DNA of 64,000 bases from an uncultured virus (IMG/VR IMGVR_UViG_3300030376_003496) (IMGVR_UViG_3300030376_003496), one strand, 5' to 3'. Counted from the first letter of the stretch, positions 29,759 through 48,553 are shown. Translations and numbers: made by a program. Notes: a model not told the origin generated them from the sequence alone.

Positions 29759-29769
29759 GGAGATAAACA

Positions 29770-32700
29770 ATGCCAAGAAAAACACAAAAACAAGAGCAGA
29801 CTGGTGGGCCTATTAATCCCCAGATGCAGTACGTAGAAGAACAGCAGTTTATTTCTCAAGAAGTTGCTGGAAAAGTAGGACAAGCGACTAGCCAATACCA
29901 AACAATTTTTGGGTCTGATTCCCCCTCAGCTTTTGCAACTGGGCCTTCGCCTATGCAAAATTTATTAAGTATTGTGGGAGGAGTTTATCAAGGAATTGAC
30001 GCAGCAGGGAAAACTTTTCAAACTGCTGTTGATATCGATAAACGCAAAGATGCTAAGATGGCTCGAAACTTAGAAGAACAAATGAAAGTTATCGATAGTG
30101 ATCCTAACCTTACACCAGAACAAAAACAGTGGTCTAAATTTGAATTACAAGGTAAAGGATTTCAATCGGCATTAAGACCAGAAACTAAAGATTTTTTTAA
30201 ATACAGCCAAGACATTACTATGCATAATGTCGAATTTTTAGAAGATGCAGATAACTTTTCAAATACTTTATTTGAGTTTGAAAAAAAATCAATTCGGATG
30301 ACTGCTGCTGAACGGTTAGAAAAATTACCGGGTATGTACAGAGCACTTGAAAAAAAATATCCGGGTTTTTCAGAAAAAATTAAAGAGTCTGCTAGGGTTG
30401 CTGAGGTAAAAGCACACGAATTGCTGTGGAAAGAAAACACTAATAAAACAATGGTTTATTTTGACCAAGCCTTAAATACATTTTTTAGTTCTCCTTCTGC
30501 TCAAGATAGAAACAAAATTTTTAATTTAGATCCAGAATCTGTTTATGCTGGGGCTATGAGTCTTATGCGTGAAAGTGATACAGACGCTACGAATTTTGCT
30601 CTAAGTGCTGAAGACGAAGAACAAGATTCAGCTTTAAGAGAAATTCTTGTAAACAGAGCAAACCAAGCTTTATTTGAACGTCAATCTACTGAAAGAAATG
30701 CTCAACGAGAAGCCAAAAGAGCAAACTACGGTCGTAATATTGGTATAGCTACTCCCGGTAGCTATAGCCCTATTGTAGACGCTATAGATTATGGCGGCGT
30801 TGGTTATTTAAGTAATATAGCTATGTCTCCTTATCTCCAAGGTGAAACAGGAGAACAGTTTGGTAAAAACATTCAGCGTTATCGAGATGAGCTTTTGGGA
30901 GCAACTACCGAAGTCCCTGATTATTTATTGCAGTTTTGGAATTTATCTAAAACAGGTAATTTTAATTTAAAAAGTGTCGAACAATATTATAATCTTGGGG
31001 CTGAATACGAACAAGTTAAGGCCGGAATTGAGGTTTTTAAAAGACTTAATGAAGACGGATTAAGAGTAGACAACGTAAATGAAGAAGATTTAGCAACATT
31101 AAAAATAGCTGCTGGTTTTATGCTTGATGCTGAAATGAATAAACTTGAAATGTTGGGTGCTAACTCTGAAAACGCAGCAGCAGGTTTTGCTTTTCAGGCA
31201 TTAAATGCTTACCGGACTGATCACGGAATGCCGGGTAGAATAGCTTTAGAAATGCAGCAAACAACCCTTGACGAAGAATCAGATAAACGAACAGAAAACG
31301 AAACAGGCAGAGCTTTATATACATCGGCTTTTCTAGGTTCAGGAAGTTGGAATGCTTATAGTAATCATCTTCAAGCTAGTATACAAAGCATCGTGGCGGA
31401 TTTTTCTGGTCGAGTAACTGGCCCTACTATGGCTGGATACGAGTTTGACCCGCAAATGGTAAAAGACGAGCAAACTTTAAGCGCAGCTTATGCTGAGTTA
31501 AATAAGCTTGAACAATCTGGTGTTGCTTATAAAAAATCAGAAGAAGCAAACAAAAAGAAAAATGAGATAGTAAAAAGTATTTATGATGTATTAGATGCAC
31601 ACGATCTTACAATAGGAAGACCAAGAATTGATGTTTCAGATTCTAAAGAAAGATTAGACAACGCCAATAGAGCCGCTGAAAATGTAACTGAAGAAGATTC
31701 TTTTTCTTATTTCGAGCCTGCTTTAACTTCTATTTTTACAGAGGATAACAGAGTAACGTCATTAGTTCATATGCAAACGGCTCTTGAAGGTGTTACCGAA
31801 GGTTTAAGGGCATATCAAGAATTTATTCCTGATCAAATTGTAAGAGGTGAGGGCTACATTGAACCCTTATTACAAGATGTGCAAAAGATTTTAAAATCAG
31901 ATCAACCTTTAGAAGAAATTATTCCTAGTGTTTTAGGAATGTTAGATCATTTTGAAGTGGATTTTCAGAAAGCACCTGAAAATCAAGATTCGGCGCAGTT
32001 AAATGCGTGGGGTATTTTTAGAAAAAAACTTAAAGATGTTAAACTAAATTTAATAGCTCAAGCGGCTGGCATGGATGATAACCCGGCCCGAGGGGGATCA
32101 AACCAATTTGTAAAAGTTAGAAACGATCAGGGGACTGTTTGGGGATTAAAACCTAGACTTGGAAGCCCAGAACAGTTTCAGCGTATGTTAAGCGGTAGAA
32201 TTATACCATTAGCTAATGAGGGTTATGTAGATGATTTCCTGTTACGCGCTAATTCTGAAGGTCCAGCTTTAGACTATCTTGTGGGATCTGTAGAACAAAT
32301 TGTAAAAACTTACCAAGACGCTGCACAAGCAGAAGAAGACCCCGACCGAAAAATGTTAGCTGGTATGATAGCTGTTTCGGGTAATGAAGATCACAAGGCT
32401 ATTTTAAAACAACTTTTTGAGGTTACGCATAATACCGCAATGTCTCACTTAGTTCCAGAAAAACTTAAAAACGCTATGCGAACTGGTTTTATGGTTCCGC
32501 TTTTAAACCAGCAAACTAAAAAAGTATATAGTTCATTTCTTGGAGCACAAGAAGAAGATCCGTTTAAAGCCCAAATATTAACAATATTAGATTCTTCATT
32601 ACCTGTTTTACTTAATATTGAAAATCCCGAAGAAGCTCTTTTTAACGCTTCTAGAATGAGCGAAGCTTTAAATCTTTCTTTAAGCCGGATTAATCAAAAA

Positions 32701-34371
32701 GGTACTTATATAAACGCACTAAACGATGCAGAGGTTTCTAATACTGTTGCTTTTTCTTCTGGGCTTGAGCAAGCTATTGGAATGCACGAAAAAAGAAGAG
32801 GTGTGGTTTCTACAAAAGGCAATAGACACTCTAATATTGACGGAGTTTCTGCGGTTGTTTTAAACGGTCTTCAAATTACAGGATTACCTGTTGATTCTTC
32901 GACTACTGCTAGTAAATCCCTTCTTAATATGTCTACTCCTAAATTAGATCAAGCTATGTTAGGAGCAGTATTTGATTTAATGCCAGAAGCTATGAGATCA
33001 CAAGCGCAGCTTCAATGGGTAAATACTACTTTTATGGAAGCTGCTGGACCTACTTTTGGTCAAAATACGGGTGATTTATACAACTTAAGGGAAAAAGCTT
33101 TACAAGCTCAAGGAACGTTATTAGGAAACAGCTTACCTTCCAACGCTCAAATTGCTGTTGCAATTGTTCCAACTCAAAATGGAGAAGATAACCAAAAATT
33201 AAGGTGGTTTCCTAAAACTCCTGATAAAGAAGCACACTATCAATACGATGGTGTAGAAGTTACATCAGCAAACGAGTTAAGAGTGTATTTAAACGAAGAA
33301 TTAGGGAAAACAAATTCTGGTTTTGAAATAGAAGCTTATATGGTTTCTAGTCCTAACGATGTAACACCTACATCTACTACAACCCCACCTAATTTACGCT
33401 ACGTAGGACCACGAGATACTCAAGGGTTAATTGCTCCAACTGCTCCAGCAAACGCGCAACGAAGAGTCTCAGCGCAAAGCCAGTTAATCGTATCTCCTAC
33501 GTCTTCTAAAGATATTATTACAACTTTTCTTACTAATAAAAACTCTGGTTTTAGTTTACTTAATAATCAATTACAAAAAAATGCCCAACAAGACGGTGAT
33601 AAAAACCAGTTACACCCTAAGTTAAAAAGACCTTTTATGCTCTTTTTAACAGCGTTTAAAAAATCTACAGGTAATTCGAGACAGTTCAACGGCGGCGCAG
33701 ATACTGTTTTAAGAGGAGTCGCAGAAAGAGGCGAGTGGCAGAATACTTCAGTTCAAGATTATGGTCGAACTGTAGCAGATCAAGAAGCATTAATAATGGG
33801 TATGGCAATTTTAGATGATCAGTGTAAAAGAACATTAGAACAAGCATCTTCTGAAGGGTGGACACAAGATCGGTTATTTCAAGAAATGGACGAACAAATT
33901 GCAAACCTTACGCAATTGTTAGATTCTTCTAACGGTATTCAAACTTGGATGACTCCCGATAATGAAAATATTATATTAGCTCAACCGGATATGAACGGAG
34001 AAGAATTGTATGATGTAAATTTAGATTTTATGGCAACTTTAAGAGGAGCCGCCTACCAAAATCATAATAGAAATCAAATGAGTAATTCTGGCTTTACTTT
34101 AGACGGCGGAATGGATTATTTTGGAAGAGTAAATTCCGGTATGTTTAATATAGGGGCTGTATCTAGATACGAGCATAGAGTAAATGTTCCTGACGTTAGA
34201 GGACCGATGTTTCAACCAGAATTACTCCGCAAAAACTTAAGGGCATCAGAAGTTTCAGCCTTTAATAGATTAGAAGGAAATAAAAAAATTATAGAGTACA
34301 ACTGGAAATCTCCTGATACTCCCTATAGAGCATACCTTGAATATCTTAGGTCTTTACAAGAACAAAATTAA
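29770..34371 (+). CDS. Internal virion (ejection) protein, T7 gp15-like position, 1533 aa
   Basis: Large helical, essentially Cys-free protein between the gp14-like and gp16-like genes. Confidence 0.6.
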   Translation: MPRKTQKQEQTGGPINPQMQYVEEQQFISQEVAGKVGQATSQYQTIFGSDSPSAFATGPSPMQNLLSIVGGVYQGIDAAGKTFQTAVDIDKRKDAKMARNLEEQMKVIDSDPNLTPEQKQWSKFELQGKGFQSALRPETKDFFKYSQDITMHNVEFLEDADNFSNTLFEFEKKSIRMTAAERLEKLPGMYRALEKKYPGFSEKIKESARVAEVKAHELLWKENTNKTMVYFDQALNTFFSSPSAQDRNKIFNLDPESVYAGAMSLMRESDTDATNFALSAEDEEQDSALREILVNRANQALFERQSTERNAQREAKRANYGRNIGIATPGSYSPIVDAIDYGGVGYLSNIAMSPYLQGETGEQFGKNIQRYRDELLGATTEVPDYLLQFWNLSKTGNFNLKSVEQYYNLGAEYEQVKAGIEVFKRLNEDGLRVDNVNEEDLATLKIAAGFMLDAEMNKLEMLGANSENAAAGFAFQALNAYRTDHGMPGRIALEMQQTTLDEESDKRTENETGRALYTSAFLGSGSWNAYSNHLQASIQSIVADFSGRVTGPTMAGYEFDPQMVKDEQTLSAAYAELNKLEQSGVAYKKSEEANKKKNEIVKSIYDVLDAHDLTIGRPRIDVSDSKERLDNANRAAENVTEEDSFSYFEPALTSIFTEDNRVTSLVHMQTALEGVTEGLRAYQEFIPDQIVRGEGYIEPLLQDVQKILKSDQPLEEIIPSVLGMLDHFEVDFQKAPENQDSAQLNAWGIFRKKLKDVKLNLIAQAAGMDDNPARGGSNQFVKVRNDQGTVWGLKPRLGSPEQFQRMLSGRIIPLANEGYVDDFLLRANSEGPALDYLVGSVEQIVKTYQDAAQAEEDPDRKMLAGMIAVSGNEDHKAILKQLFEVTHNTAMSHLVPEKLKNAMRTGFMVPLLNQQTKKVYSSFLGAQEEDPFKAQILTILDSSLPVLLNIENPEEALFNASRMSEALNLSLSRINQKGTYINALNDAEVSNTVAFSSGLEQAIGMHEKRRGVVSTKGNRHSNIDGVSAVVLNGLQITGLPVDSSTTASKSLLNMSTPKLDQAMLGAVFDLMPEAMRSQAQLQWVNTTFMEAAGPTFGQNTGDLYNLREKALQAQGTLLGNSLPSNAQIAVAIVPTQNGEDNQKLRWFPKTPDKEAHYQYDGVEVTSANELRVYLNEELGKTNSGFEIEAYMVSSPNDVTPTSTTTPPNLRYVGPRDTQGLIAPTAPANAQRRVSAQSQLIVSPTSSKDIITTFLTNKNSGFSLLNNQLQKNAQQDGDKNQLHPKLKRPFMLFLTAFKKSTGNSRQFNGGADTVLRGVAERGEWQNTSVQDYGRTVADQEALIMGMAILDDQCKRTLEQASSEGWTQDRLFQEMDEQIANLTQLLDSSNGIQTWMTPDNENIILAQPDMNGEELYDVNLDFMATLRGAAYQNHNRNQMSNSGFTLDGGMDYFGRVNSGMFNIGAVSRYEHRVNVPDVRGPMFQPELLRKNLRASEVSAFNRLEGNKKIIEYNWKSPDTPYRAYLEYLRSLQEQN

Positions 34372-34408: not shown

Positions 34409-37400
34409 ATGTCAAATTTTAGCGCAAATTCAGATTGGTTTAAAAACTACGTTAATTCTATTGAAGTAGAAGAGTTTAATAAAAACAGACCTAAACTAAC
34501 TTATAAAAAATTTGAGGAAAATCAAACTTTATCTACTTATATTGCAGAAGAACGTTTTCTTAACACGCTGGAAAAATCTACTGATTTAGTCCCAGAGTAC
34601 GACTATATGGATAGGCTTAAGGATAAACAAGAAAACTTACTGGGTTTATACCGAATGAATTTTTCTGAAATTGAAGAGCGTGATGCAAAAAGACAAGCTG
34701 AAAGAGAAAAATACGCCGCTCTTATAACGGACGAAGAAAAAGAGTTACACGATATTACCGAAGGTAATAAAGTTGCTAAAATTAAAGAAGGCATGAAAAA
34801 TAACGTTCCTTTATGGCAGTTAATGAACCCTGATGATTTTGTTACTAAAGAAGCAGGCGAAGCTCAGGTACGATTGTATGATACTACTGACGGTTATTCT
34901 ATGTCACAGTATACGACATTTACAACCGCTGACACTTATAAAAGTTGGTTCGGTACTACCAAACGAGTAAGAATGGGTGCAGCCCAACGTCTTCAGCTTG
35001 ATACTTCAACTGCTGATGTATTTAGAAAAATTGCACAAGCTGCTGGTATTCAGTTTAATTTTGAGGGAGAGGTTATTAAAGGCAGTAACCTAACTATTAA
35101 ACAATACATTGACGAACATATTGGAGAAAACCCTGATCAGTATTGGTTCTGGGAAAACATAAAAGATATTTTTGTAGATACTGGTATTGATGGTCGCCTT
35201 GGTCCGTGGAACAGTACTATGCTTTCTGAAAAACTCCTAGCTTTAAAAGATGATAACTGGATGGGAGAAGGAGGAGATAGAGACAAACTTATTGCTATTC
35301 TTTCTATGGATGAAAGTGAAATTGGACCAACAGGTGCTGTACAGGGAGAGGTTAGGCAGTTCTTAGCAGAAAATCCTCAGATCTTAGAAGACCTTAAAGG
35401 ATCTCAAAATGGCTGGCAGTTTATTTCAGCCTTAAACGCAAGAAAATCCGAACGTGTTATTGGTAATTATTTAACTGAAAATAACGGCGATTACGGATCA
35501 GCAGGTTTTTTAAATCTTTTAGGATACGGCTTTACTACCGACCCTGCATTAGCTTTAGATGTAGCAGCTACTGTAGGACTTACGGCTGTTACTGGCGGCG
35601 GGTATCTTGGAGCTAGAGTAGGAGCAGGAGTTCTCCAAGTCGGCACTAAAATGAAATTTGCTGTGAATGCTTTAGATCATTCTAAAAAACTCAGGCACTT
35701 TAATAAAATGGTCGATTTAGCTAAAAAGGATAATGTCCTTAGAAGATACAGCGTAGGATCAAAGTTAGCTAAGGGTTTATCTAGAACTGGTGAGGGTATA
35801 ATGTTTACCCGAAGACTTTTACCAACTCAGATTGTATCTGAGCTTTTCTTTCCCAGTGTTAAGTTTTTATGGCATGGTAGGGCAATGAAAAAAGGTGATG
35901 ACGCTGTAGACGCTGGTAAATCGTGGTGGAAATACTTAAAAGATGAAAACTATTTAGGCGACAATGTAGGACACCGTATGCTTCACAGAGCACTTGGAGG
36001 AGCAATGGAAGGTGTTGTCTGGGGAAGCATTGAATACGGAGTTATGGAAGACTATCAAGATAGAACAAATAGTCTTATATTTGGTAATGAAGCTTCGGCA
36101 GCTTTAGCTTTAGATAGAGATAGAAGCGGCGCGTTTGGTCATATGCTTATGTTTGGAGTAGCCTTTGGTGGTCTTGGTGGCCCTCTTATTGGTGAGGCTT
36201 TTACTCAATTAGGTAGAATCCCTAAAGGTCTGATTAAAGGCGGGATGGGATTAAATCAATGGGCTGATCAACTTCTTAGTCCGGGCGGTCAAGAAGCTAT
36301 GGGTTATACAAAAACACCGTGGGCTAAACGATTTGCAGCAAAGGTTGTAAAAGGAACAGGTGTAGCAGCGCAGTGGTTAGGTGGCGGAAATCAATACACA
36401 ATTGAACAACATTATTTAATGTATAAAGCTCTTAGTATGTTAAGTGATGTCGAAATTGAAGCTATTAAGGCAGACGAGTCTGGTAGAGCTATGACTAAAA
36501 CTTTACAGTCAATTCAAGATAGAATCTCTAAGTGGCACTTTGTAGCTGAAGAAGGAGGTCTTGATCTTAAGAAATCTTTTGAAAACGCAGAGGCTGAGTT
36601 TATGCGTTTAGACCCCTCAGAACGAACTGCCCGCGCTTTTACAGATTTAGTAGAAAACGACATAGCAGCACAGGAACATGTCTTTAGAGAAGGCGAAGGA
36701 TTTAGAGATAGAGTGTCACATGAAATGAGGCGTGAACATGACGCACGCATGAGAGCAAGCTCTGATTTCGATCTTATGCAAGAAGCTATGGCTAAAGCAG
36801 ATCCATCTAAACCACCTGCTGGTTCTGATGGAGTTACTTTTAGTAAAGAAGCTGAGGAAATAGAAGCAAAACGTGTTGAAACAGCACGGCAAAACACTGA
36901 AGCAAGAGCCGAACAAGCTAGAAGAGAAGCGGGAGAAGATTTAGAAGAACCTGTAGCAACTCCAGACGATATTAAAGGCGATTTAGCAGACGAAATGGCT
37001 CTCCGCGATGCAGACACTATTGCAGCAAAACAACAGGCAATTGAAGACGCTAAAAAACTACAGAAAGAAGCAGAGCAAAGAATAGCGGAAATGGAAGGAG
37101 GCAGCAAACAAGAAAAAAAAGCAAATTACCCAGAAGAATACCCTGCTGCAAAAAAACAAATAAGAGATGCTAAAAACGCAAAGAAAAAGGCAGAAGAGTT
37201 TCTTGAAAAGGCTGAAAAAGCTAAAGAAATTCCTCTGGAAACGGTAGAAGAAGAGCTTAAGGCTAAGTTAGAAGAAGCTAAAAATGATGTTAGGAATATA
37301 TCTGATGAAGAACTTGCTGATAGAATTACTGATTTTGAGTTAACTTTAGGACAACTTAGATCTGAGCTTAACTCTGAAGCTATGTTATATTGGCAACAGA

Positions 37401-40400
37401 ATCCTACGAAATTTGTTGAAATGGTAGGGTGGTTTAGAAAAACAGTTCTTAACGAAAGAATGAGAGGCGATACGCCAAACGCTAATAACCTTCCTCCGAT
37501 GATTACAGGCATTAAAGAATTAGAGCCGGGTCAATGGACACATATGGTTGAGCTTTTTGCTCCCGGTGTTTACTTTAGCCGTGACGAGTTATTACGTATT
37601 ATTCCTAATATTAAAAATAAAGTTGACCGTGAGTTTTTAGAGGCTGCTTTAGTTTGGAACCAAAACTCACGTAATGATATTGATTTAGATCAAGCCGGGG
37701 CTTTAAAGCTTGCTAAAGAAATGGAAGAAATTCTTTTAGATCACGGAGCTTCTAAAGATTATACCCTCGAAGAAATGCACTTTATGAATAGGATTATTAA
37801 TAATCCAAATGAAGAAACAATCTTAAAAGCATTTAAAGAAACTAGAATTGATACGTATGTTAATAGCATTATGATTGATGCCGCCAAACGAAACAAAACT
37901 GTTTCTGTTAAAGACTTACTTATCTACAACCAAGATCCTGAGTTAGTAACGGAAACGTTTGCAAAAGCTCGGCTAGAACTTGGGGAGCTTATGGCTCAGG
38001 TTAAAGAAGGAAATTACGAAAGTATTCTTAAAAGCCAAGGTAAGCATGTTCTAAATTCTCTCGGAGAAGGTGTGCAAGGTTTTAAAAAATCAAAAACTAA
38101 CCAGTGGAAAGCTGAGTTCTTAGCGGATCATTTCGAGAATAGCCCTGAATTTACTAATAGCCTTAGAGAAATGTTGGATGTTTTTGATGACGTTGAAGGA
38201 CAAGTTAAAACACCGAAACAGCTTACTTTAGTAAAAAACAAAGTACAGGATTTATTAGAAAAAGTAGCTAACGATAATAAAAGAAAACTTCAATTAGCTG
38301 AAATTAGAAGATTGAAAAAAGAAAATAATTATAGTGAACTTCGGACTGAAATGCAAGACGCTTACGCTAGTTGGGACAAAGCGGCTAAAGAAGGTACAAA
38401 CTCAGCTAAAATTAATAAGCTTCGATCTGAGTTTATTAAGAAAAAGAATGCTGTTAAAAGGTTAAACGAAGGTTTTAAAAAATCTGTTGAAGCTAACTGG
38501 GAAAGCATTAAACAAAAATGGGTTGATATGCAGGGTAAACGTCTTGATATTGAAACTAGACCCGACTACGCCCACACCCGTCCATTAATTAAAATTGTAT
38601 CAATGCTTAATGGTCACTTATTAGCAACGTCTAAATGGTGGCACGATCCTGTAACTGGTTTCCACGTTGACTCTACTATTTCAAGAAAAGATCTTATTTC
38701 TATTCTTGAGTCGGCTGAAGAAGGATACGGGTTTATTGCCAATTTAGATGATATTGCTATTGGGTCTAAAAACGGATCTGGTTACGACGGTGATAAAGTT
38801 GTTCAAGCCTTAATCGAAAGAATTAAAACTTCTAATGAAACCCTTGGAGAAATCCTTCGTCAAGGCTTTGAAAAAAACAGGGATATTCACTTCGGTAAAA
38901 AGCTTCCTTATGCTAAAGATGTTTACGGTTCTGGGGGAGATCTTAGAAACCTGATGGAGTCATTAAAGGGACAGCAAGCGGGTAAGCAGGCGTATGCTAG
39001 GGAAAAAGGACAAAACGGTGAATACTCAGGAAATAGATTAGAAGGTAACCTTACAAGAGACGCATGGGTACAAGCCTTTAATGGTGACCTATTAAATGGT
39101 ATTAGCTTTATGTTAAAAGGCGACGGACCTCGTTCTCAGCGTATTAAAGCAGCGGTAGATAGTCTAAGGGGACAAGAAAGAGTTGATAGGCTTTTAGATC
39201 TTGTTAACGAGTTTATTCCCGAAGGTCAAGAAAAACTTAGAGACTTTAGCCAGTTAGGGGGCGGAACAGATGCTGTTGATTGGGTTGGCCCTAAGAGAGC
39301 AGCTAACGCTGTCTTGTCTGCCTTATCTAGTGACCGTCCCTATGCTAATAAGGTAGCTGAAGCAGAAGTTATCCTTGGACAAAAAGGACCAGCAGTAGCA
39401 AGAAGATTAGGTGCTATTAACGAAGATGGTATTTTTATTCAGCATGATTCTGATCCTGTTATTCAAAGAAACTTTGAAAGAGCTTCAGCAGATCAAGCTA
39501 TGAATTGGTTACTTGGTAAATTAGATGATCCTGAATTAGACGCTGCTGGTAGGAAAGATATTTACGATAAGCTTGAAGCTTGGTTACAAGATTTCCCTGA
39601 ACAGGCATTCTTAAACGAAGCTGTTAGGTCCGCATTACCACGGCAAGGTCTTTCGTTTGTCCCCCGTTGGATGGTTGCTGGACCTGATCTTGATATTATC
39701 GGTAAAAACTTTGGTGAAGGCATTGCAGGACAAATTAAATATCAGCAAGCAATGAACGCAGCCGTGACACCGGCATTAATGGCTACTATTCACGATGCTA
39801 TCTTTGTCGGTCTTCCTACTATGATGACAAAGTTTAACAACGAAGCGGCTGCTTCCCCTAACTGGAATTATAAAGATTCTGAGGGTAGGCACGTTCTTAG
39901 GGGTATTGGTTTTGGTTTCCAGACTATGATTGCTAGACAAGGAACGTTTGAAGACGCAATTAACCTCTCGCATGAACTTATTTACGGTTATACTGGGTTA
40001 GTAGATAACGCCCGTAAGGCTTATAATAAGATGTCGAGGCAAAAAATAGAAAACCTAACAGAACAGCAATTTAAAGATAACGACGAATTTATGGGGTGGA
40101 TGGTTCAAGAATTTCCTAAATTAAATGACGAAAATAAAAAAGCTATTGTTAGAGAAATTTTCCCTGCTGTAGCTAGTTCTTACATGGATGCCGATTCTTC
40201 AGGTTCTAATATTATGCTTGCAATAGTAATGGGACAAAAGGCAGATTTTGGTTCTTTGTGGGAAAAGATTAAAGGATCTGCCCCAGAGCTTGAACAAGGC
40301 GCGTTTAATGAAGCCCACAGTACAGCAGTAAATAACGCTTATAAGCACGTTGAAAATTACATTGTTCAGAGGATTAACGACGGTAACTTTGAAGGTAAAG

Positions 40401-43400
40401 TCGGCCTTGAAGAAGTATATGCGGACTTAAAGGGTTTGTTTGAATTTGCTCAAGCAGAAGGAGCAACTAAGGCTATTCTTAAAGGCCCGGTTATGACTGA
40501 TTCTTACGGTGTCGGTGTTAAATCTATGGCTAAACAAATTAGAGATTCTTTAGGTGCTGAAGAAATTAGAGAAAAGCTTATTAGGGCTAACAAAGGATTT
40601 ACTACAGAAAACTACGATGTTAAAATCCACGCTTTATCCGACAGTTTAGCTACTTTATTATCAAAGGGTATAGACGATAATCTTGGTGGCTGGATTAAAC
40701 GAAGTCTTTTTGAGCAGAAAATTACTAACAAAAAACTGGGTGGAATTCTTAGTGACTGGAGAAATACTAACAGCGGAGCAAAAGTTAGAACCGCTGGGGA
40801 TAAAGAATCGCTGTCTGTTAGTAACGCTAGAATGGATAGTATCCAAGGAGTAGCCGAAACAAATGCGGGCTATAAGGCAGGTAACAGAGAAGAAACACTT
40901 GACTTTGATGACATGTTTACGGAAGTTAGAGAGCGTGTTGAAACTTTAGCTGAAATTATGGGCGATGCGAATGAAGCTAAAGAGTGGGTAAGCGGTATTG
41001 TTAATCTCATGGTTGACGATCTTAAAGGCAACAAAAATATTCAGAAACTTATTGATGAAGGTAAATACGCCGAAGCACAGGAAGCTATTGATATTCAGTT
41101 TAATACACTGGCTAATGAAAATATTACGGTAAAAGCTCTAAATAGCTACATGGCGCAGGGAATTGGTTACGATGAAGCTGGGTTTAAATCCCAGATTCGG
41201 GGTATTATTCCTGACGCTGATGCAGATAAACTGGATGCTATTTTAGGTAACTTAAATCCAATTACTCGTCAGGCTATTAAAGGACAAATGTTTAGGCAAT
41301 TGGCTATTTCCGCCGAAACAAGAAACTTTGTTTCTAGTAATTTTGATTTAATTGCAGATAAAATTCTTAGGCTTGAGGCAGAAGAATCTCCTCTTGGTTT
41401 AGCTAAACTTATTATGGAACCATTAGGTGAAGAAGACATTAGACAACGAACTATTTTACAGGCAATGAAAGAAATTTCTGAGATTTACGATTTAGAGAAA
41501 TTAGGACTCAAAGTAGGAGGAGAAGAGTTTAAAAATCTTACGTGGGATCAGTATTTCAAACAATGGGAAAAAGATAGTGATATGGGTCAAGAGCTTAGAT
41601 TAAAAGCCATCGAATCTTTACAGAACATTAACTGGAAAGCCATGTTAAACGAGATTGATGAAAAAATGGCTAATGATCCTAGCGATGAAAAAGTCATGTC
41701 TCTTGAAATGCGGAAAGAAGCTATTGAGCAAACGCTTAAAATGCTTACTAGAATTATCGACGCTACTAACGAAGCTAGACCTACTGACTCTGCTAAACAA
41801 ATGGAGATTGTATCAGGAAGTAAAAACGTTATTAACACGGGCAACATGCCGGGACTTTTTGGCGCACTTCCTCAGACTACAACTCGTCGGTTTGAAGGAG
41901 CACCCATTCCAATTCTTAGGATGGCGCAGCTTGAGCAAACTGCCGAAGTTCGTAAATTAAGATCTCTTGAAAGAGGAGCACAAACTCAAGATTCTAGCAA
42001 GCCCCTCTTTACAGAAAGAGAATTGGCAAGAAGATTAACTCCAGATGATCTCATTGGGGTTGAAAAGTATAGGGGATCTATGTACGACGTTCCGTTATCG
42101 TCTAAGCCTATTTACTCATTACAAGACGCTCCTACTCCGGCTATTGCTGCCGAGCTTTTACAGGCCGAATTAACCAATTTTGCTAACCAAGTTGGAGGTA
42201 AAGCACTTACGTACCTTAAAGAAGGTAATTTCTATATGCTTTACAACTTACAGAGGCACTTTACGGCTGAACAAGAAGCAATGAAAGCCGAAACAATTTA
42301 TAGAGATATTGGACAGGCTTTAGCTGAAAAGAGAACAAGTATTCTAAAAGACTCTGAAATTACTGATGAGTTAACAGAAAACATGATTCTTAATAGAAAC
42401 GAAGATTATGTTAACCTTAAACTTGAATTAGCTAAAGCGCAAGATAACGCTCTTATGGTAAGAAACGAGGTTCTTTCTATTGATGGATCATGGGCTATTG
42501 ACGTAGATGAAAGGGTTTGGTCGGTCCAGTCTATGAACGGAGAATCTTTAGAAACTGTTTCTAGCGGAAGAACTTATTCAGAAGCTATTAATAAGACAGC
42601 TATGGATAACCCAAGATCGGGTAACTTAATTGCATGGCTTGCGCCCCCCGCTAAATCACCGGGTGAGGTTATTTCTGAATTTGGTAATAAAGGTGGAATT
42701 CGTTATGCCGATGGATCTAATGTTGCGATGCTTCCAAAAGGTGCTCATTCAACTGATGCTTCTGGTCCTTTATATATGGGTAATCAAATTCAAGTTACTG
42801 GATGGCACAACGCTTTACATAAAATTTTAGGTCTTGCTGACGATGTTTCTCCCACTAGTAATGAAATTACTGTATTTAGACGATGGGCTGACGCAAAAGC
42901 ACGGGCTGATGTTGACGAGATGAATAAACTTAAAAGACAGTACCCCAATTATATTAAAGATTATGAGGATATGACTTCCGTTCAACTTGACGCTAGTTTA
43001 GGAGAAGGGCAATCAAAAGCTAAGAAAGATTTTAGAGACGCTAATAAAGCACTTTTCTATATGTCTAAGCCTGTTATTAAAGCCCAAGTCATAGAAAATC
43101 TTAAGGCTCAATTTGGAGAAGACTTTGAAGCAAAGCTTAGAGAAAGATCAGATCTTACTTTAGAAGAATTAATGACGTTTGAAAGAAAAATAACAGACGA
43201 AGATACAATTATTTTTGTCAATCCTCTTGGTGTTGTTATTTCTCCTCACAAAGTTGTGGGGCAGGCAGTTATTAACTTAACTATGCAAGAAAGAGTATTA
43301 TCTTTAAACGGTATTCAGAATCAAACTGTTGTTGACCGAATGAGATTAGCTACTATGCTTGATAGAAAATTACCAATAAACTCAGAAATTTCGTCGCGTA

Positions 43401-46400
43401 TGGGTGGTTATGATCCCTTTACAAAATTTGATGGGATGACTATTGATAGAGCTAGGCGTAATACTGCTATCTTAACTGATGCTTTAGAAGACCTTCAAAG
43501 CAGAAGCACAACTCACAAATTAAGCGTTGCTGTAGATAGAAGACACGTTATTCGTCGGGGTACTTTATCAGAATCTCCTATGAGATTTATTAAATTTAGT
43601 GATGCTATTAACGAACAGGGAGCTAAAGAAGCTCGTATGATTCTTGCTGAAAACACCTTAGAAGTATTACCTTTACGTAAAACAACTATTGATCAGCTTT
43701 ATGTGTTAAAAAACACAACTTTTAATAAATACAACGAAGCTGATTGGGCTAACGGAATTCAAATTGCCTTAATGACTGGGAAAGAATCTGCTTGGGCGGT
43801 ATTTAAAGAACGTGTTATTGCAGAAGAACGACTGAATAAAACTAAAGATCTTGACCCAGAAGACTTTGAAAAAGAATTAAACGAACGATGGGATAAAGTT
43901 AAAGATATCGTTAATATTCTTAGAGACGAATTAAACGTTCTTAATAAAGATGAGGGATTAGTGGGTAAATTTATAAGTGACCGAAATGATATTTTCTTTG
44001 GTTCTAAAGCCAGCGATAGTGAAAACCATGCTACTTTTATTAGTTTATATTCCCAGAAACTTAGCATCGAAAGAGCGGCTCAAATCGAAGTAATGAATAG
44101 AACTCTTATTCCCGATAATAAATCATTTGATAGGACGGTTCAATTTGTTAAACCTATTGACGATCTTAATGGTATTGCAGCAAGATCTGACGGAACTCAA
44201 ATGAAGCCTAATACTATCGACGCTCGTTTAAGGGATTACCCTGCTGATGACGGGCATTTAATGTTAAGTTATCGTTTAGATACTTTCGTAGATCAGGGAG
44301 TTTTAAACAGGGATCAAGCAAGTGTTCTAAAGTTAGCTTTCTGGGATTATGATACAGAAGCATTAAACCGTATTTTTGATCCAATGTCATCTGGTACTCC
44401 TATTCGCTTTAGTGTAACAGAAAGTGTTAATTATTTAGGAAAATACGAACAAGTTAATAAAACTTTTACAGATGGTGTAGTCCACAGAATTGATTTACTT
44501 AAAAACTTATCTAGTCGATTTAAAGAAGAGGGATCATTAGGTCCGGCTGCTGTTGTCTTAGAAGAAATTGGTCATGCTTTAGGCCATAGATTAAACACTG
44601 AAGATCAGATTAATTTTATTGAACGTGTTAGAAAAATCGAAATTGCTGAAATTGAAGAAGCCGAAAAGCTTATTTACGGTAAAGCAACAGACAGCGAACA
44701 ATACAAAAAGAGACTTCAGCAATTAAAAGAAGATCGCGCTAGAATGGAAGGCGATATTCCCGAAAACGCCGCAAGAAGAACAGAGTTATTCGGTGCTATG
44801 TTTGCTATTAGTGGTTTACATAAAGCTAAAAACCAGTGGGACTTTATTTCTAAGGGATTAGAAACCCAAGAAGCTTTAACTGATGCTCACGCAACTATTT
44901 CTAATCTTAATAAATTAGCTACTGTCGCTGGCATTGAAGATATCAACAGTAAGAGTTTATTTGCAGACGTTGAAGCTACTCTTAAAAGTGCTATTAATCT
45001 TGAAATGCGGATGAACAAAAGAAATAAACCTACTGATGATAACAGAGAAGTAGGGGACGATACTGGCCCTCTTATGGTGGATGATATTACGTCTTCTCTT
45101 AAAGAAAATGAAGATGCTCGTCGCGCTCAACTTGATAATGAGGTTGATGAGATTATTGAGCAAATTACAGATCCTAACACTAACGAAATAGATCTTAACT
45201 TACTCCATGAAAACGGCACATCAAGTATTACTTTAAAAGATCAGGTTATTATGAGAGCTATGGAAACTAACGTTAAGCGATCTACTATGGGTCGAAGAAT
45301 TGAAACACCCTTTTCAGATTTTGTTGCTGCTATAGCTTTTGGTAAATTAACTAATAACCAAATTGCTCGGTATAACGATATGCTTTCAAGCCCCTTCGGT
45401 ATGAGAAACATGGCATTTGCTGTTGATGGTGAAGTACCTTTAGCTGCTCCTATTTTACATTTGTTTAACGCAGCAGATAGCCAAAGTTACTTTACGTCGG
45501 GAGCTTTTGAAGATGCTATGCCTACTATTCAAGCTTTAGGGTTATATCTTAGAGGAGAATTTGAAAAGATTATTCCTGCTCTTGCTATTCTTAAAGGAGA
45601 AAACGCAACTCAAGGACCACTTGGGCCTTCTGGGGGAGAAACTACTCCGTGGTCACTTTTCTCAAGCTTGTGGCGTGAAATGATTATGGATTACGAAACA
45701 CCTGAAAAAGCAAAAGCTATTGTAAAACAAAAACTTGCGAGTATGCAGGGTAATGACGATTCGTTTAAACGTTTTATTAATTCCAACAAATCAGATGAAT
45801 TTGTAGATATTTTAGTCCAAACAGCAGATTCTTGGGCTAACCCAAACGAAGGCTTGTGGCCTCACATTGTAGATTCAATGGTTACTGCTGGTATGGTACG
45901 ACCAGAGAAACGAGATGACTTGGTTGCTAAAGCTGCTTATCCTATTAAATTTAAAGATAGTATCTTTCAAAACGCTGTTGACGTTGACGGTGATACACCA
46001 AGGCGTGAATTAAGAAGAGCTATTGTAGAAATCGTAAGAGACAAAATGAATAATTCAGAAGATGTTGATGTAGACATTCTTCAAATCGCATTAGCGGATT
46101 ATTTCCCTGTCCCAAGTAAAAGAAGAGAAGTTGATGTTAGCACATGGAGTAATAGACTTCCTATGGAAGTTAGATCTTTACTGGAATCTGATGAGATTAA
46201 AGGAAATGTAAATGTTCTTCTTAATAAAATCCGTAGAGGAGATATTAAGATGAAAGACCTTGGGACAGAAACAAAAAGATTATACGATGAAACTCTTATC
46301 GATGAAAGTTTACTGGGTAAAGATAACCCCAATAAACAGGCTATGCTTCTTGAGTTATCAGAAGAATTTAGAAACAAATTAGCTAAATCGCAGCAGACTT

Positions 46401-48553
46401 CAACTTTAGATCTTCAGGTTACAACGGCTGCTGAGTTTGTAGCTAATCGTTACATGAGTAATATTGGTTCTTCTAGTTATTCGTTTGCTGGAGATGCTTT
46501 CTTATCTCCTAGACAGCTTTGGGAAGACCCTCGTATTTCTAAATTCTTAGAAGATGATCCTGTTGCTCTTTTAGATTCTGTTAAAAGAGGTACGGCTGCT
46601 CAAGCATTTGACAGAGCTACTTACAGTAACTACTTTGGTATTAAAGGTTTTGGAATGAAAGATCTTATTGAAATGTACAAAAAAGTAGGTAACGGTAAAA
46701 ACACCCATCACGAAATGCAGATGTTGTTTATGTCAAAAGATATGGAATTAGATCAAACTCGATATAACTTAACTAGTGACGAACGAAAGAAATTTAAAGC
46801 CGGTGTCGATCATATTGATCTTATGTATAAATACTCAATTGGTACACTATCTTCAATTGATAATAAATACGGTGCTCCTTTCTTAAATATCTTAAATACA
46901 ATTAGTGAATTAGGTACGGCTTTATCTATTGCTCCTCGCCTTGCTATTGCTACGGCTATTGAAGAAACTCCAATGAGTATCGGAAGTGTTTTAAAAGATA
47001 ATCTTTTAGGGGCAAAAAAAGAACTGCAAGATGTTCTTTCTATCGCTAAAAGTACTAAAGATATTGAAGCTACTCTTCAAGGCTTAGGGCACGTTACTTC
47101 TTCTGTTATGCATAAGGCTGCTGCTTTAGCTGCTAAACTTGGCGATGATGGTACAGGGTCATACGGAGCTACGGATAAGAAAAAGATTAAGGCACTTTAT
47201 AAGTTCCTGTCTATGGGTATGGACAAACAGGTCATGGCTGCTCGTAGTCTGGGTGCTATGCAGTATATTCATAGAGTTGATAAATTGTTTTCAAATATTG
47301 CTGGTGATCTGGGAACCGCTAAGGATAAAGACGGTCTTGAGGTGGGTATTACTCGTCAAGGTGCCGGAGGATTCCATGTTACAGCAGATGAGTTATACTT
47401 ACAACTTCAAAATAGATACGATAACGATTTTTCTAATATCACGAAAAAGAATTTCCGAGAGTTTACACGTGAATTAAACATAGATGAAGAATTATCCAGA
47501 GATGTAATGGAAATGATTAAAGCTGGTTTATTCGAGGCAGATAAATATAAATACGTCCGAAACTTATGGATTGAACACAGGCAAGATATTCTTCGTACTG
47601 GTATTCCTTTTGATGATTTACGTACAAAAATTACTTTTGATTTTGAAAGAAAAACTCAAGAAGGGATTGATGCTGAAGGAATTAGAGCAAGAAAGCTACA
47701 GGCACTAAACGGATTAAGAGAACTTGTCTTTGTGGCTTCTACTAAGTTTGCTAAACAGCCTTCGTTAAGTACTCAACCGCTTGGTGCAAGACACGCGGGT
47801 GCCCTTGCTACGTTCTTTACTCGCCTTACAACCTACGCCTCCTCCTCTGCTAATACACTTAGAAGAGCTATGTTTGCTGGTCCTTCGGCCTTTGCTGCCG
47901 CTTTTTCTGCTCACATGATTACGGGGTGGTTATACTATAAGCTTATTCAGCTTCAGGGTTTCCGTACTATCGAAGAAATGAAGAGAGAATTACAGAAAGA
48001 CCCAATGGGTGAATTATCAGATGCAGCAATGTCTGTTCCTTTCATGGGGGCTAACCAAATGGTCTTAAGTATGCTCATTCAGATGATGAGAGGAGAACGC
48101 CCTGTTAACTCCAAGCCTTACGATATCGCTGCTTTAAATGCTGCAAACAACCTCTTGCAGTTGCCTGTAAGAGTTACTCAATCGGTTGGGGATATTATTT
48201 CGGGGGATGTCTCAAAGGGTTCAGCTAATATTGCACAACGTCTTCCTGTACCTCACGCATGGGCTTTAGCTATTGCATTACGAAATGCGGGTATGTTCGA
48301 GAAAGACATCCAAATTGGTAGACTCAGCCCCAATTATAGGGGACAAGTCACACCTAGATCGTTTACTCAGGGCCGTCCTTCTAATAGACAATTACCCAAT
48401 AAAGAAGCACTGGAACAACAAACAGTTGATCTTAAATCACAATATGTCCCGCAACATATGGATGAAAAGACAGGTAAAACTGTACCATCTTCGGCTGAGT
48501 CTGATAGAGTAAATCGATTATTAGAAGAATTAAGAAAGAGAGACATAAATTAA
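34409..48553 (+). CDS. Giant internal virion protein (gp16-like position, 4714 aa) with a putative single-subunit RNA polymerase domain and a zincin-like motif
   Basis: Gly-rich hydrophobic segments near the N-terminus; TIHDA, DSEGR, MDADSSG and KAILKGPVMTDSYG motifs at 39662-40510; EEIGH at 44561; no Cys seen. Confidence 0.7.
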   Translation: MSNFSANSDWFKNYVNSIEVEEFNKNRPKLTYKKFEENQTLSTYIAEERFLNTLEKSTDLVPEYDYMDRLKDKQENLLGLYRMNFSEIEERDAKRQAEREKYAALITDEEKELHDITEGNKVAKIKEGMKNNVPLWQLMNPDDFVTKEAGEAQVRLYDTTDGYSMSQYTTFTTADTYKSWFGTTKRVRMGAAQRLQLDTSTADVFRKIAQAAGIQFNFEGEVIKGSNLTIKQYIDEHIGENPDQYWFWENIKDIFVDTGIDGRLGPWNSTMLSEKLLALKDDNWMGEGGDRDKLIAILSMDESEIGPTGAVQGEVRQFLAENPQILEDLKGSQNGWQFISALNARKSERVIGNYLTENNGDYGSAGFLNLLGYGFTTDPALALDVAATVGLTAVTGGGYLGARVGAGVLQVGTKMKFAVNALDHSKKLRHFNKMVDLAKKDNVLRRYSVGSKLAKGLSRTGEGIMFTRRLLPTQIVSELFFPSVKFLWHGRAMKKGDDAVDAGKSWWKYLKDENYLGDNVGHRMLHRALGGAMEGVVWGSIEYGVMEDYQDRTNSLIFGNEASAALALDRDRSGAFGHMLMFGVAFGGLGGPLIGEAFTQLGRIPKGLIKGGMGLNQWADQLLSPGGQEAMGYTKTPWAKRFAAKVVKGTGVAAQWLGGGNQYTIEQHYLMYKALSMLSDVEIEAIKADESGRAMTKTLQSIQDRISKWHFVAEEGGLDLKKSFENAEAEFMRLDPSERTARAFTDLVENDIAAQEHVFREGEGFRDRVSHEMRREHDARMRASSDFDLMQEAMAKADPSKPPAGSDGVTFSKEAEEIEAKRVETARQNTEARAEQARREAGEDLEEPVATPDDIKGDLADEMALRDADTIAAKQQAIEDAKKLQKEAEQRIAEMEGGSKQEKKANYPEEYPAAKKQIRDAKNAKKKAEEFLEKAEKAKEIPLETVEEELKAKLEEAKNDVRNISDEELADRITDFELTLGQLRSELNSEAMLYWQQNPTKFVEMVGWFRKTVLNERMRGDTPNANNLPPMITGIKELEPGQWTHMVELFAPGVYFSRDELLRIIPNIKNKVDREFLEAALVWNQNSRNDIDLDQAGALKLAKEMEEILLDHGASKDYTLEEMHFMNRIINNPNEETILKAFKETRIDTYVNSIMIDAAKRNKTVSVKDLLIYNQDPELVTETFAKARLELGELMAQVKEGNYESILKSQGKHVLNSLGEGVQGFKKSKTNQWKAEFLADHFENSPEFTNSLREMLDVFDDVEGQVKTPKQLTLVKNKVQDLLEKVANDNKRKLQLAEIRRLKKENNYSELRTEMQDAYASWDKAAKEGTNSAKINKLRSEFIKKKNAVKRLNEGFKKSVEANWESIKQKWVDMQGKRLDIETRPDYAHTRPLIKIVSMLNGHLLATSKWWHDPVTGFHVDSTISRKDLISILESAEEGYGFIANLDDIAIGSKNGSGYDGDKVVQALIERIKTSNETLGEILRQGFEKNRDIHFGKKLPYAKDVYGSGGDLRNLMESLKGQQAGKQAYAREKGQNGEYSGNRLEGNLTRDAWVQAFNGDLLNGISFMLKGDGPRSQRIKAAVDSLRGQERVDRLLDLVNEFIPEGQEKLRDFSQLGGGTDAVDWVGPKRAANAVLSALSSDRPYANKVAEAEVILGQKGPAVARRLGAINEDGIFIQHDSDPVIQRNFERASADQAMNWLLGKLDDPELDAAGRKDIYDKLEAWLQDFPEQAFLNEAVRSALPRQGLSFVPRWMVAGPDLDIIGKNFGEGIAGQIKYQQAMNAAVTPALMATIHDAIFVGLPTMMTKFNNEAAASPNWNYKDSEGRHVLRGIGFGFQTMIARQGTFEDAINLSHELIYGYTGLVDNARKAYNKMSRQKIENLTEQQFKDNDEFMGWMVQEFPKLNDENKKAIVREIFPAVASSYMDADSSGSNIMLAIVMGQKADFGSLWEKIKGSAPELEQGAFNEAHSTAVNNAYKHVENYIVQRINDGNFEGKVGLEEVYADLKGLFEFAQAEGATKAILKGPVMTDSYGVGVKSMAKQIRDSLGAEEIREKLIRANKGFTTENYDVKIHALSDSLATLLSKGIDDNLGGWIKRSLFEQKITNKKLGGILSDWRNTNSGAKVRTAGDKESLSVSNARMDSIQGVAETNAGYKAGNREETLDFDDMFTEVRERVETLAEIMGDANEAKEWVSGIVNLMVDDLKGNKNIQKLIDEGKYAEAQEAIDIQFNTLANENITVKALNSYMAQGIGYDEAGFKSQIRGIIPDADADKLDAILGNLNPITRQAIKGQMFRQLAISAETRNFVSSNFDLIADKILRLEAEESPLGLAKLIMEPLGEEDIRQRTILQAMKEISEIYDLEKLGLKVGGEEFKNLTWDQYFKQWEKDSDMGQELRLKAIESLQNINWKAMLNEIDEKMANDPSDEKVMSLEMRKEAIEQTLKMLTRIIDATNEARPTDSAKQMEIVSGSKNVINTGNMPGLFGALPQTTTRRFEGAPIPILRMAQLEQTAEVRKLRSLERGAQTQDSSKPLFTERELARRLTPDDLIGVEKYRGSMYDVPLSSKPIYSLQDAPTPAIAAELLQAELTNFANQVGGKALTYLKEGNFYMLYNLQRHFTAEQEAMKAETIYRDIGQALAEKRTSILKDSEITDELTENMILNRNEDYVNLKLELAKAQDNALMVRNEVLSIDGSWAIDVDERVWSVQSMNGESLETVSSGRTYSEAINKTAMDNPRSGNLIAWLAPPAKSPGEVISEFGNKGGIRYADGSNVAMLPKGAHSTDASGPLYMGNQIQVTGWHNALHKILGLADDVSPTSNEITVFRRWADAKARADVDEMNKLKRQYPNYIKDYEDMTSVQLDASLGEGQSKAKKDFRDANKALFYMSKPVIKAQVIENLKAQFGEDFEAKLRERSDLTLEELMTFERKITDEDTIIFVNPLGVVISPHKVVGQAVINLTMQERVLSLNGIQNQTVVDRMRLATMLDRKLPINSEISSRMGGYDPFTKFDGMTIDRARRNTAILTDALEDLQSRSTTHKLSVAVDRRHVIRRGTLSESPMRFIKFSDAINEQGAKEARMILAENTLEVLPLRKTTIDQLYVLKNTTFNKYNEADWANGIQIALMTGKESAWAVFKERVIAEERLNKTKDLDPEDFEKELNERWDKVKDIVNILRDELNVLNKDEGLVGKFISDRNDIFFGSKASDSENHATFISLYSQKLSIERAAQIEVMNRTLIPDNKSFDRTVQFVKPIDDLNGIAARSDGTQMKPNTIDARLRDYPADDGHLMLSYRLDTFVDQGVLNRDQASVLKLAFWDYDTEALNRIFDPMSSGTPIRFSVTESVNYLGKYEQVNKTFTDGVVHRIDLLKNLSSRFKEEGSLGPAAVVLEEIGHALGHRLNTEDQINFIERVRKIEIAEIEEAEKLIYGKATDSEQYKKRLQQLKEDRARMEGDIPENAARRTELFGAMFAISGLHKAKNQWDFISKGLETQEALTDAHATISNLNKLATVAGIEDINSKSLFADVEATLKSAINLEMRMNKRNKPTDDNREVGDDTGPLMVDDITSSLKENEDARRAQLDNEVDEIIEQITDPNTNEIDLNLLHENGTSSITLKDQVIMRAMETNVKRSTMGRRIETPFSDFVAAIAFGKLTNNQIARYNDMLSSPFGMRNMAFAVDGEVPLAAPILHLFNAADSQSYFTSGAFEDAMPTIQALGLYLRGEFEKIIPALAILKGENATQGPLGPSGGETTPWSLFSSLWREMIMDYETPEKAKAIVKQKLASMQGNDDSFKRFINSNKSDEFVDILVQTADSWANPNEGLWPHIVDSMVTAGMVRPEKRDDLVAKAAYPIKFKDSIFQNAVDVDGDTPRRELRRAIVEIVRDKMNNSEDVDVDILQIALADYFPVPSKRREVDVSTWSNRLPMEVRSLLESDEIKGNVNVLLNKIRRGDIKMKDLGTETKRLYDETLIDESLLGKDNPNKQAMLLELSEEFRNKLAKSQQTSTLDLQVTTAAEFVANRYMSNIGSSSYSFAGDAFLSPRQLWEDPRISKFLEDDPVALLDSVKRGTAAQAFDRATYSNYFGIKGFGMKDLIEMYKKVGNGKNTHHEMQMLFMSKDMELDQTRYNLTSDERKKFKAGVDHIDLMYKYSIGTLSSIDNKYGAPFLNILNTISELGTALSIAPRLAIATAIEETPMSIGSVLKDNLLGAKKELQDVLSIAKSTKDIEATLQGLGHVTSSVMHKAAALAAKLGDDGTGSYGATDKKKIKALYKFLSMGMDKQVMAARSLGAMQYIHRVDKLFSNIAGDLGTAKDKDGLEVGITRQGAGGFHVTADELYLQLQNRYDNDFSNITKKNFREFTRELNIDEELSRDVMEMIKAGLFEADKYKYVRNLWIEHRQDILRTGIPFDDLRTKITFDFERKTQEGIDAEGIRARKLQALNGLRELVFVASTKFAKQPSLSTQPLGARHAGALATFFTRLTTYASSSANTLRRAMFAGPSAFAAAFSAHMITGWLYYKLIQLQGFRTIEEMKRELQKDPMGELSDAAMSVPFMGANQMVLSMLIQMMRGERPVNSKPYDIAALNAANNLLQLPVRVTQSVGDIISGDVSKGSANIAQRLPVPHAWALAIALRNAGMFEKDIQIGRLSPNYRGQVTPRSFTQGRPSNRQLPNKEALEQQTVDLKSQYVPQHMDEKTGKTVPSSAESDRVNRLLEELRKRDIN

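Follow-up and report, generated by a model that had tools for sequence, protein, structure and literature searches.

Virion-packaged RNA polymerases (RNAPs) of the right-hand type have so far been described, in open-access full text and bioRxiv, for N4-like phages only. In phage N4 (family Schitoviridae), a central, diverged single-subunit RNAP (mini-vRNAP, aa 998-2103) is part of the giant virion protein gp50 of 3500 aa. The virion polymerase vRNAP is embedded in a homologue of the internal virion protein IVP-D (gp16) (PMC4819975) and has the canonical motif order TxxGR-A-B-C (PMC4496689), while N4 also encodes a T7-type RNAP II for the next phase of transcription (PMC4496689; PMC13492108). 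A packaged enzyme of another type, gp66 of the crAss-like phage phi14:2, is described as a large injected RNAP that transcribes early genes (bioRxiv 10.1101/2020.03.07.982082); it has the two-barrel DFDxD site of multisubunit RNAPs, not the right-hand fold of the Pol A type. No virion RNAP of a T7-like phage was found to be reported in the open-access full text and bioRxiv. Here we analyse a 4714-aa protein (P0001), encoded by an uninterrupted open reading frame (ORF) at 34409..48553 on the plus strand of a 64,000-nucleotide stretch of DNA (the window) of the uncultured virus IMGVR_UViG_3300030376_003496. This giant protein is presumed, from its gp16 position, to be an internal virion or ejection protein, and the data support the view that it contains an RNAP module of single-subunit affinity. 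This module extends over aa ~1745-2335 (39641..41413, plus strand, limits approximate).

In an exhaustive search with phmmer, 12 proteins of the family were found among 1.84 billion representatives; a word-indexed search yielded 5 proteins, including the window's own, and scans of IMG/VR and JGI metagenomes 15 loci with only 3 new sequences (55-81% identity to known members). All members originate from environmental contigs, and full-length homologues comprise 3971-4719 aa. Conservation is given below for an alignment of 14 sequences covering aa 1580-2450, with 21-67% identity to the window's protein.

The fingers of the giant protein, including motif B, are homologous to the fingers of T7-type RNAPs. 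This block (aa 1970-2046, with Y1978, K2021, K2025, M2029 and Y2033; 40316..40546, plus strand) has its core at 40469-40516, where the motif-B string KAILKGPVMTDSYGVG (aa 2021-2036) is encoded. In single-subunit RNAPs, motif B is located in the O helix, a part of the fingers. Residues K2025, M2029 and Y2033 are present in 14/14 sequences, position 2021 is occupied by Lys in ten and by Arg in two, and G2034 is found in eight. In the hhalign comparison of the 14-sequence family with the family of the phage's own canonical RNAP (59 sequences), aa 1970-2046 were aligned to RNAP positions 567-639, from the DIY helix through motif B, the E-value being 3.5e-5 (71.8%) when the entire region was compared, 1.8e-7 (93.8%) for the block alone and 0.59 for the reversed control. 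The phage's own RNAP carries the motif B attributed to it in the original prediction, PKRTVMCDPYG. The best match of the RNAP motif-B hidden Markov model (HMM) in each full-length giant protein lies at the same aligned place (14/14), and in the reverse search the motif-B profile of the giant family landed on motif B in 59/59 RNAPs. Positions 117-198 of Pfam RNA_pol (gathering cut-off 22 bits) match aa 1973-2058 with 12.3 bits (E 0.073); in relatives, the score reached 20.0 bits (E 3.4e-4) in P0005 and 17.9 bits in the P0004 phage. The motif-B block was also the best local match to the profile of N4 mini-vRNAP (E 0.035), a profile of low diversity with an effective sequence number of 1.5, and in the full-length 4714 x 3500 hhalign comparison with N4 vRNAP (E 0.08).

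Predicted structures and protein language model features point to the same block. Two template-free AlphaFold2 (AF2) models were built, of aa 1500-2600 from 14 sequences and of aa 1740-2130 from 17 sequences; for both, human mitochondrial RNAP (POLRMT) and T7 RNAP ranked 1-2 among 48,161 chains in VIA-align, the similarity extending over the fingers. The alignment of the first model with T7 RNAP begins at model residue 435, equivalent to T7 residue 543, and D1927 (model residue 428) falls approximately at T7 D537. In the ESM Atlas, the nearest clusters of aa 1720-2120 are PF00940 and N4 vRNAP families (0.92; 181-193 of 256 features), with a recognition value that falls short of the comfort threshold of the tool. 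The RNAP-related module is supported by the motif-B profile match, the 14/14 best matches, the AF2 fingers and the ESM matches taken together.

Five motif strings had been named in the original prediction, VPRWMVAGPD, TIHDAIF, DSEGR, YMDADSSG and the motif-B string, and all are present in the ORF at the residues given, in a span that agrees with the predicted 39662-40515 to within 3 nt. The probability of such strings arising by chance was assessed with 5000 residue shuffles of the 4714-aa protein. The pattern [RK]xxxKxxxMxxxYG, observed once, was present in 16/5000 shuffles, and the motif-C-like pattern, which was defined post hoc, in 12/5000. The pattern DxxxSG, observed 5 times, occurred in 3691/5000 shuffles and DxxGR, observed 3 times, in 3611/5000. 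According to these counts, chance is an unlikely source of motif B and of the HD block, and the DxxGR and DxxxSG strings alone are uninformative. It is very improbable that a helical region of an ejection protein has come to resemble RNAPs by chance, without an evolutionary tie to them, since the hhalign result, the HMM matches in 14/14 proteins, the AF2 ranks 1-2 and the ESM clusters all point, in one register, to an identical stretch of 80 residues; within this convergence, the AF2 and ESM results depend on sequence similarity.

Although the giant protein resembles gp50 in general architecture, with long flanks that are thought to serve ejection, its module differs from the N4 enzyme. The Pfam domains of N4 vRNAP, PF21769, PF21894, PF21624 and PF21867, carried by all 120 N4 relatives listed, were not detected in the giant family at E up to 1, and nothing outside motif B was aligned in the full-length hhalign comparison with N4 vRNAP. 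The giant module is accordingly placed outside the N4 vRNAP family. The giant family also departs from the canonical motif order of N4, and, unlike N4, the phage has a T7-type structural module, a single-chain RNAP of 859 aa and a giant protein of 4714 aa instead of 3500 aa.

Profile and predicted structure relate the module to T7-type RNAPs (PF00940; T7 gp1, POLRMT) in the fingers with motif B, including the Met of this motif; a candidate motif A-like DxxxxG lies approximately 100 aa upstream. In contrast to these enzymes, the giant module scores below the Pfam cut-off, has no detected N-terminal domain and is embedded in 4714 aa. Motif C of PF00940 (xHD, 170-270 aa after motif B) is absent from its place in the giant protein, which has an invariant HD upstream instead; the T/DxxGR motif (~115-135 aa before motif A) is likewise absent from its place, and a GR candidate, R2305, is located after motif B. 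Because of the score below the cut-off and the positions of motif C and T/DxxGR, the giant module cannot be regarded as a regular member of PF00940.

Only 20 of the 871 aligned positions of the window's protein are invariant: G1617, P1752, P1788, A1789, H1795, D1796, G1832, G1836, D1927, A1928, D1929, G1932, Y1978, K2025, M2029, Y2033, P2284, R2305, R2321 and W2386. Eighteen of the 20 invariant columns lie within the RNAP-like module. Since these few positions include the candidate polymerase active-site residues, the latter are under the strongest constraint.

An invariant DADxxG is located at the position expected for motif A. The motif A candidate YMDADSSGSN (40181..40210, plus strand) begins with the string YMDADSSG (aa 1925-1932), in which D1927, A1928, D1929 and G1932 are invariant; D1927 lies 98 aa ahead of K2025, the Asp of motif A in PF00940 being expected ~95-105 aa ahead of motif B. 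This distance of 98 aa and that of 104 aa between D1823 and D1927 had been given correctly in the original prediction, as had the corresponding T7 spacings of 94 and 116 aa, confirmed on the T7 record (D421, D537 and K631). DNA polymerases have Phe in motif B and, in DNA polymerase I, a steric-gate Glu at motif A. The giant family has residues of the RNAP type at both places, namely Met in motif B (M2029, 14/14) and Gly at position +5 of motif A. For this reason a polymerase of other specificity derived from the Pol A superfamily (a DNA polymerase, a primase-like enzyme or a template-independent nucleotidyl transferase) is the least probable of the alternatives considered, although the DxD of motif A and the odd motif order imply an active site unlike that of T7 RNAP. 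Pfam RNA_pol was matched, and no match to DNA_pol_A was obtained at E up to 1.

The candidate for motif C located upstream of motif A is the HD block AAVTPALMATIHDAIFVGL (aa 1784-1802; 39758..39814, plus strand), with P1788, A1789, H1795 and D1796 in 14/14 sequences. Its central string TIHDAIF (aa 1793-1799) reads like ALIHDSF of T7 and CMIHDSF of the phage's own RNAP, and AAVTPALMATIHDAIFVGL is the most hydrophobic 19-mer of the giant protein, as expected of a buried strand-turn-strand. A profile of aa 1784-1804 had its best place in the motif-C bin in 38/59 canonical RNAPs, with scores of about 0 bits. The P-motif block VPRWMVAGPD (aa 1751-1760; 39659..39688, plus strand) contains the invariant P1752, and D1760 is found in 4/14 sequences, with a gap in the other 10. 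In several sequences, the P1752 segment was placed on IPPNW/FxHSxD (IPPNWVHSID) of canonical RNAPs at -3 to -4.7 bits, which is the noise level, and this place is approximately 30 residues ahead of that of the HD block. With scores of about 0 bits or lower, the placements of the HD and P segments represent a location test on related sequences and not independent proof. Between the HD block and motif A, a Gly-rich stretch RGIGFGF (39899..39919, plus strand) contains the invariant G1832 and G1836; R1831 is present in 7/14 sequences. Assignment of the HD block to HD-domain phosphohydrolases was rejected, as no second invariant His was found upstream.

A weak UBA-like match is located just upstream of the RNAP-like module, at 39479-39544 (aa 1691-1712; Pfam UBA_7, E 0.13; PDB 1vek, E 0.059). 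The nearest ESM clusters of aa 1740-1915 (39626-40153) are either unnamed or LPD38 (0.92; 142-148 of 256 features). LPD38 domains are known from large polyvalent proteins that phages and conjugative elements encode; the feature counts suggest a chance resemblance.

Downstream of motif B, the string HD is absent, as had been predicted (it occurs only at aa 114, 777, 1412, 1679 and 1795), and no invariant acidic residue was found there in the 14-sequence alignment. A rival candidate for motif C is D2255 in the block ALNSYxxQGxGYDE (41126..41185, plus strand), 222 aa after Y2033. This distance can be regarded as canonical, being 173 aa in T7 and 273 aa in N4, the latter counted from Y678 to D951, which we take to be the motif-C residue of N4. 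D2255 is present in 12/14 sequences and E2256 in 10/14; in five members His is found at position -2 (xHxDE). If D2255 and the following R2305 block represented motif C and T/DxxGR, the protein would be an active polymerase whose motifs are simply circularly permuted to A-B-C-T, and the upstream HD would serve another purpose. Such an order is a true rotation of T-A-B-C and can arise from one event of duplication and trimming. However, P0008 and P0009 have Asn and Lys, respectively, at position 2255 while keeping all other invariant residues, the profile of the D2255 block lands elsewhere on RNAPs than on motif C, and the HD at 1795/1796 is both invariant and motif-C-like. This arrangement is considered distinctly unlikely. 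Stray matches of the RNAP C-module HMM near aa 2771-2820 in P0003-P0005 were rejected, as the acidic residues that follow are not conserved.

The DSEGR string (aa 1823-1827; 39875..39889, plus strand) had been proposed as T/DxxGR, and this assignment was not upheld: R1827 is found in 1/14 sequences, D1823 and G1826 in 4/14 each, so that the motif is unconserved. A better candidate, as suggested by conservation, is the block at aa 2295-2321 downstream of motif B (41291..41371, plus strand), with the pattern F2295-x9-[G/T]R2305-x-F2307-x10-K2318-x2-R2321. R2305 and R2321 are present in 14/14 sequences and K2318 in 12/14, Gly at position 2304 in 9/14, and Phe or Tyr at 2307 in 13/14. The spacing of R2305, K2318 and R2321 equals that of R424, K437 and R440 in N4 mini-vRNAP, in which K437 and R440 hold the initiating nucleotide, as described in PMC4496689. 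The profile of this block fell into the DFRGR bin in 17/34 RNAPs and into the next bin in three more, at about 0 bits, and the RNAP T-module HMM touched aa 2302-2311 in 2/14 giant proteins at -5 bits.

The invariance of the HD pair inclines us to regard it as motif C. The second catalytic carboxylate would then most likely be D1796 of the invariant upstream HD hairpin, and the function of T/DxxGR would most likely be provided by R2305, K2318 and R2321 downstream of the fingers, resulting in the order C-A-B-T. An active, injected single-subunit RNAP within a gp16-like ejection protein, with motifs C (HD1796), A (D1927), B (K2025/Y2033) and T (R2305/K2318/R2321) in this order, is possible and is put forward tentatively. 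If both HD1796 and R2305 are real, this order is not a rotation of T-A-B-C, and therefore more than one rearrangement is needed. A permuted palm with the order C-A-B is described in birnavirus and permutotetravirus RNA-dependent RNA polymerases (RdRps), which are functional right-hand polymerases (PMC4666646). These enzymes are RNA-dependent and belong to RNA viruses; they serve as a precedent for motif C before motif A, and no homology is implied. No permuted single-subunit RNAP was found in the open-access full text and bioRxiv, the only permuted palms there being those of RNA-virus RdRps. As to the virion RNAP with a permuted palm originally predicted for this T7-like phage, its RNAP-related module stands, the role of DSEGR does not, and palm permutation is plausible but unproven.

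A number of results weigh against a working polymerase module. The mean predicted local distance difference test (pLDDT) values of the AF2 models are poor, 58.7 for aa 1500-2600 and 57.0 for aa 1740-2130; the palm is absent from both models, in which the HD, DAD and motif-B tyrosine segments have pLDDT below 50 and are drawn as helices. Foldseek searches against PDB and BFVD gave no match at E <= 0.001. Pfam RNA_pol remained below the cut-off in every member, with an hmmscan match in 2/12 members and none in the other 10, and Pfam and PHROG scans of the whole 4714-aa protein revealed no family above threshold. The 50,697 phage records searched by tblastn with aa 1500-2600 contained no match, and nothing relevant was obtained by sequence searches of PDB with aa 1500-2600 or the family profile, in which only the UBA-like protein (E 0.059) and a serpin (E 1.9) appeared. 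Neither hhalign nor the RNAP module HMMs applied to the 14 giant proteins detected motifs A, C and T, and the A-block profile of the family landed on RNAP positions 425-474 and not on motif A. The segment aa 1740-1915 alone showed no RNAP signal in the ESM Atlas. An N4-like set of hairpin promoters was not found in the region 48.5-58.8 kb. Blocks 1740-1815, 1740-1870, 1815-1900, 1900-1960 and 2060-2450 compared with RNAPs by hhalign gave E 0.23-0.66, no better than the reversed controls.

Several of these results fit a relic module that has lost polymerisation and serves the ejection protein in nucleic acid binding or in a structural role, for example, in gripping or threading the leading DNA end. 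Canonical motif C and T/DxxGR are missing from their normal places, all family scores are sub-threshold, AF2 builds no palm, and the phage already owns a complete RNAP. However, the residues that have remained invariant at 21-67% identity are those that a polymerase needs, namely the two Asp of motif A, Lys, Met and Tyr of motif B, the HD pair and two Arg, and a remnant retained for binding only would be expected to lose its acidic residues. A relic is considered rather unlikely. On balance, we regard it as moderately probable that the central part of the giant protein, aa ~1745-2335, is a very diverged, ejected and working RNAP module of the single-subunit (T7/N4/mitochondrial) lineage.

Under this explanation, the module would function as a DNA-dependent RNA polymerase, and the giant protein would be packaged and then ejected with the DNA, like N4 gp50. 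The position of the gene fits an internal virion or ejection protein, and packaging is deduced from position and size only. Like T7 gp16 and other IVP-D ejection proteins, the giant protein is the largest product in a run of presumed core-protein genes. T7 gp16 comprises 1318 aa, and the giant protein is approximately 3.6 times as long. No sequence similarity to T7 gp16/IVP-D was found in Pfam and PHROG scans of the giant protein, no dedicated IVP-D profile having been used; the core genes of T7 precede the fibre gene, whereas here they follow the terminase gene. In PMC4819975, IVP-D homologues are described as hard to detect and as hosts of cytoplasm-destined domains, N4 vRNAP included. Once in the cell, the ejected module may transcribe the leading early region of approximately 10 kb (48.6-58.8 kb), which ends with the gene of a T7-type RNAP. 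Early expression, and perhaps genome entry, would be independent of the host polymerase, and the module may help to pull the genome in.

The early region downstream of the giant gene is represented by about 10 kb of small genes (48.6-58.8 kb), ending with the RNAP gene. The search for repeated promoters yielded only a 67-nt element in two copies and one T7/SP6-like string. Sigma-70-like sites are no commoner than in shuffled sequences (19 vs 14.4 +/- 4.1). The two copies of the 67-nt element (50094-50160 and 50938-51004; 82% alike), each located between two small early ORFs, contain nested inverted repeats as well as a conserved core, CTGAGCGAGTATAAAYAG. The two copies are present at matching places in relative G001 and absent from G002 and G003 at up to 3 mismatches; a promoter and an RNA structure are possible roles of the element. 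The string ATTAGGGATCACTATAGATAA (48603-48646), which presumably resembles a T7/SP6-class promoter, immediately follows the stop of the giant gene on its 3' side and occurs only once in the window. This string and CCGGGGGGATTACT, which comes next, are kept in relatives G001 and G002, with partial conservation in G003. The block of small early ORFs at 49700-52400 has a GC content of 52-57%, compared with 37-43% in most of the remaining phage, and a GAAAGGA-type ribosome site is located ahead of each ORF of the block.

The T7-type RNAP gene at the end of this region (58761..61340, plus strand) encodes the phage's own canonical single-subunit enzyme of 859 aa (PF00940, E 2.9e-64; phrog_414, E 1.3e-142), with motifs in canonical order: DFRGR at 416, LDGTCNG at 540, PKRTVMCDPYG at 617 and MIHDSFG at 790. 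A giant protein and a canonical RNAP of 848-859 aa co-occur in 3/3 near-complete relatives. Directly upstream of the RNAP gene, genes of three tRNAs were found, Lys-ttt (57765-57837), Arg-tct (58485-58558) and Leu-taa (58562-58648), two of which have counterparts of 98.8-100% identity in a distant relative, although the giant proteins of the two phages share only ~26% identity. The near-identical stretches upstream of the RNAP gene, common to this relative, are explained as tRNA genes. Directly after the RNAP gene (61887-62462) lies the gene of a 191-aa protein whose C-terminus resembles sigma-70 region 4 (PF04545, E 7e-6).

Family scans of the ORFs showed that the window represents most of the genome of a T7-like podovirus. 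The portal (2274-3836), scaffold (3855-4739), major capsid protein (4890-6272), tail tube A (6432-7079), nozzle or tail tube B protein (7091-12556) and large terminase (26792-28486) were identified by family matches, all of these components being of the T7 type. The Phage_nozzle match is limited to residues 1309-1814 of the 1821-aa nozzle protein, which accordingly carries an N-terminal extension of approximately 1300 aa. The terminase gene is followed by three ORFs of 163, 267 and 1533 aa (28483..34371, plus strand) without family matches and then by the 4714-aa ORF. From their order and size, the products of these three ORFs are presumed to be gp14/gp15-like core proteins; the 267-aa product is hydrophobic in an N-terminal segment. 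Scanning of 27 ORFs in the window revealed no replication genes, and approximately 8 kb of the phage genome are probably missing from it. Relatives have contigs of 68-73 kb, and we infer a marine T7-like phage of about 70 kb whose largest internal virion (ejection) protein is the 4714-aa protein.

Two further segments of the giant protein lie outside the RNAP-like module. In the N-terminal third, a Gly-rich hydrophobic segment FGHMLMFGVAFGGLGGPLI (36134-36190, aa 576-594) is one of only two segments of the protein above the hydropathy threshold; as part of an ejection protein, it might insert into a membrane. The motif LEEIGHALGH (44558-44587, aa 3384-3393), which has no family match, is possibly a site of metal binding or of a peptidase-like kind. 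Its residues L3384, E3385, E3386, G3388, H3389, A3390 and G3392 are invariant in the five closest homologues, and the consensus of the 14 sequences reads LEExGH.

An active module would mean that the N4 strategy, in which an injected polymerase is followed by a T7-type polymerase, exists in the T7 lineage too, and would support ejection proteins as carriers of cytoplasm-destined enzymes, a view presented in PMC4819975. The module would represent an N4-style virion RNAP of a second and independent kind, accompanied by a canonical T7-type RNAP, and might supply a new promoter-specific RNAP for biotechnology. The palm, if the rearrangement is true, would be the first rearranged one reported in the Pol A/single-subunit RNAP superfamily, and an active enzyme would provide a natural test of how far Pol A palm connectivity can be rewired and still function. 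Such a polymerase would alter the picture of early transcription and genome entry in an abundant group of uncultured marine podoviruses.

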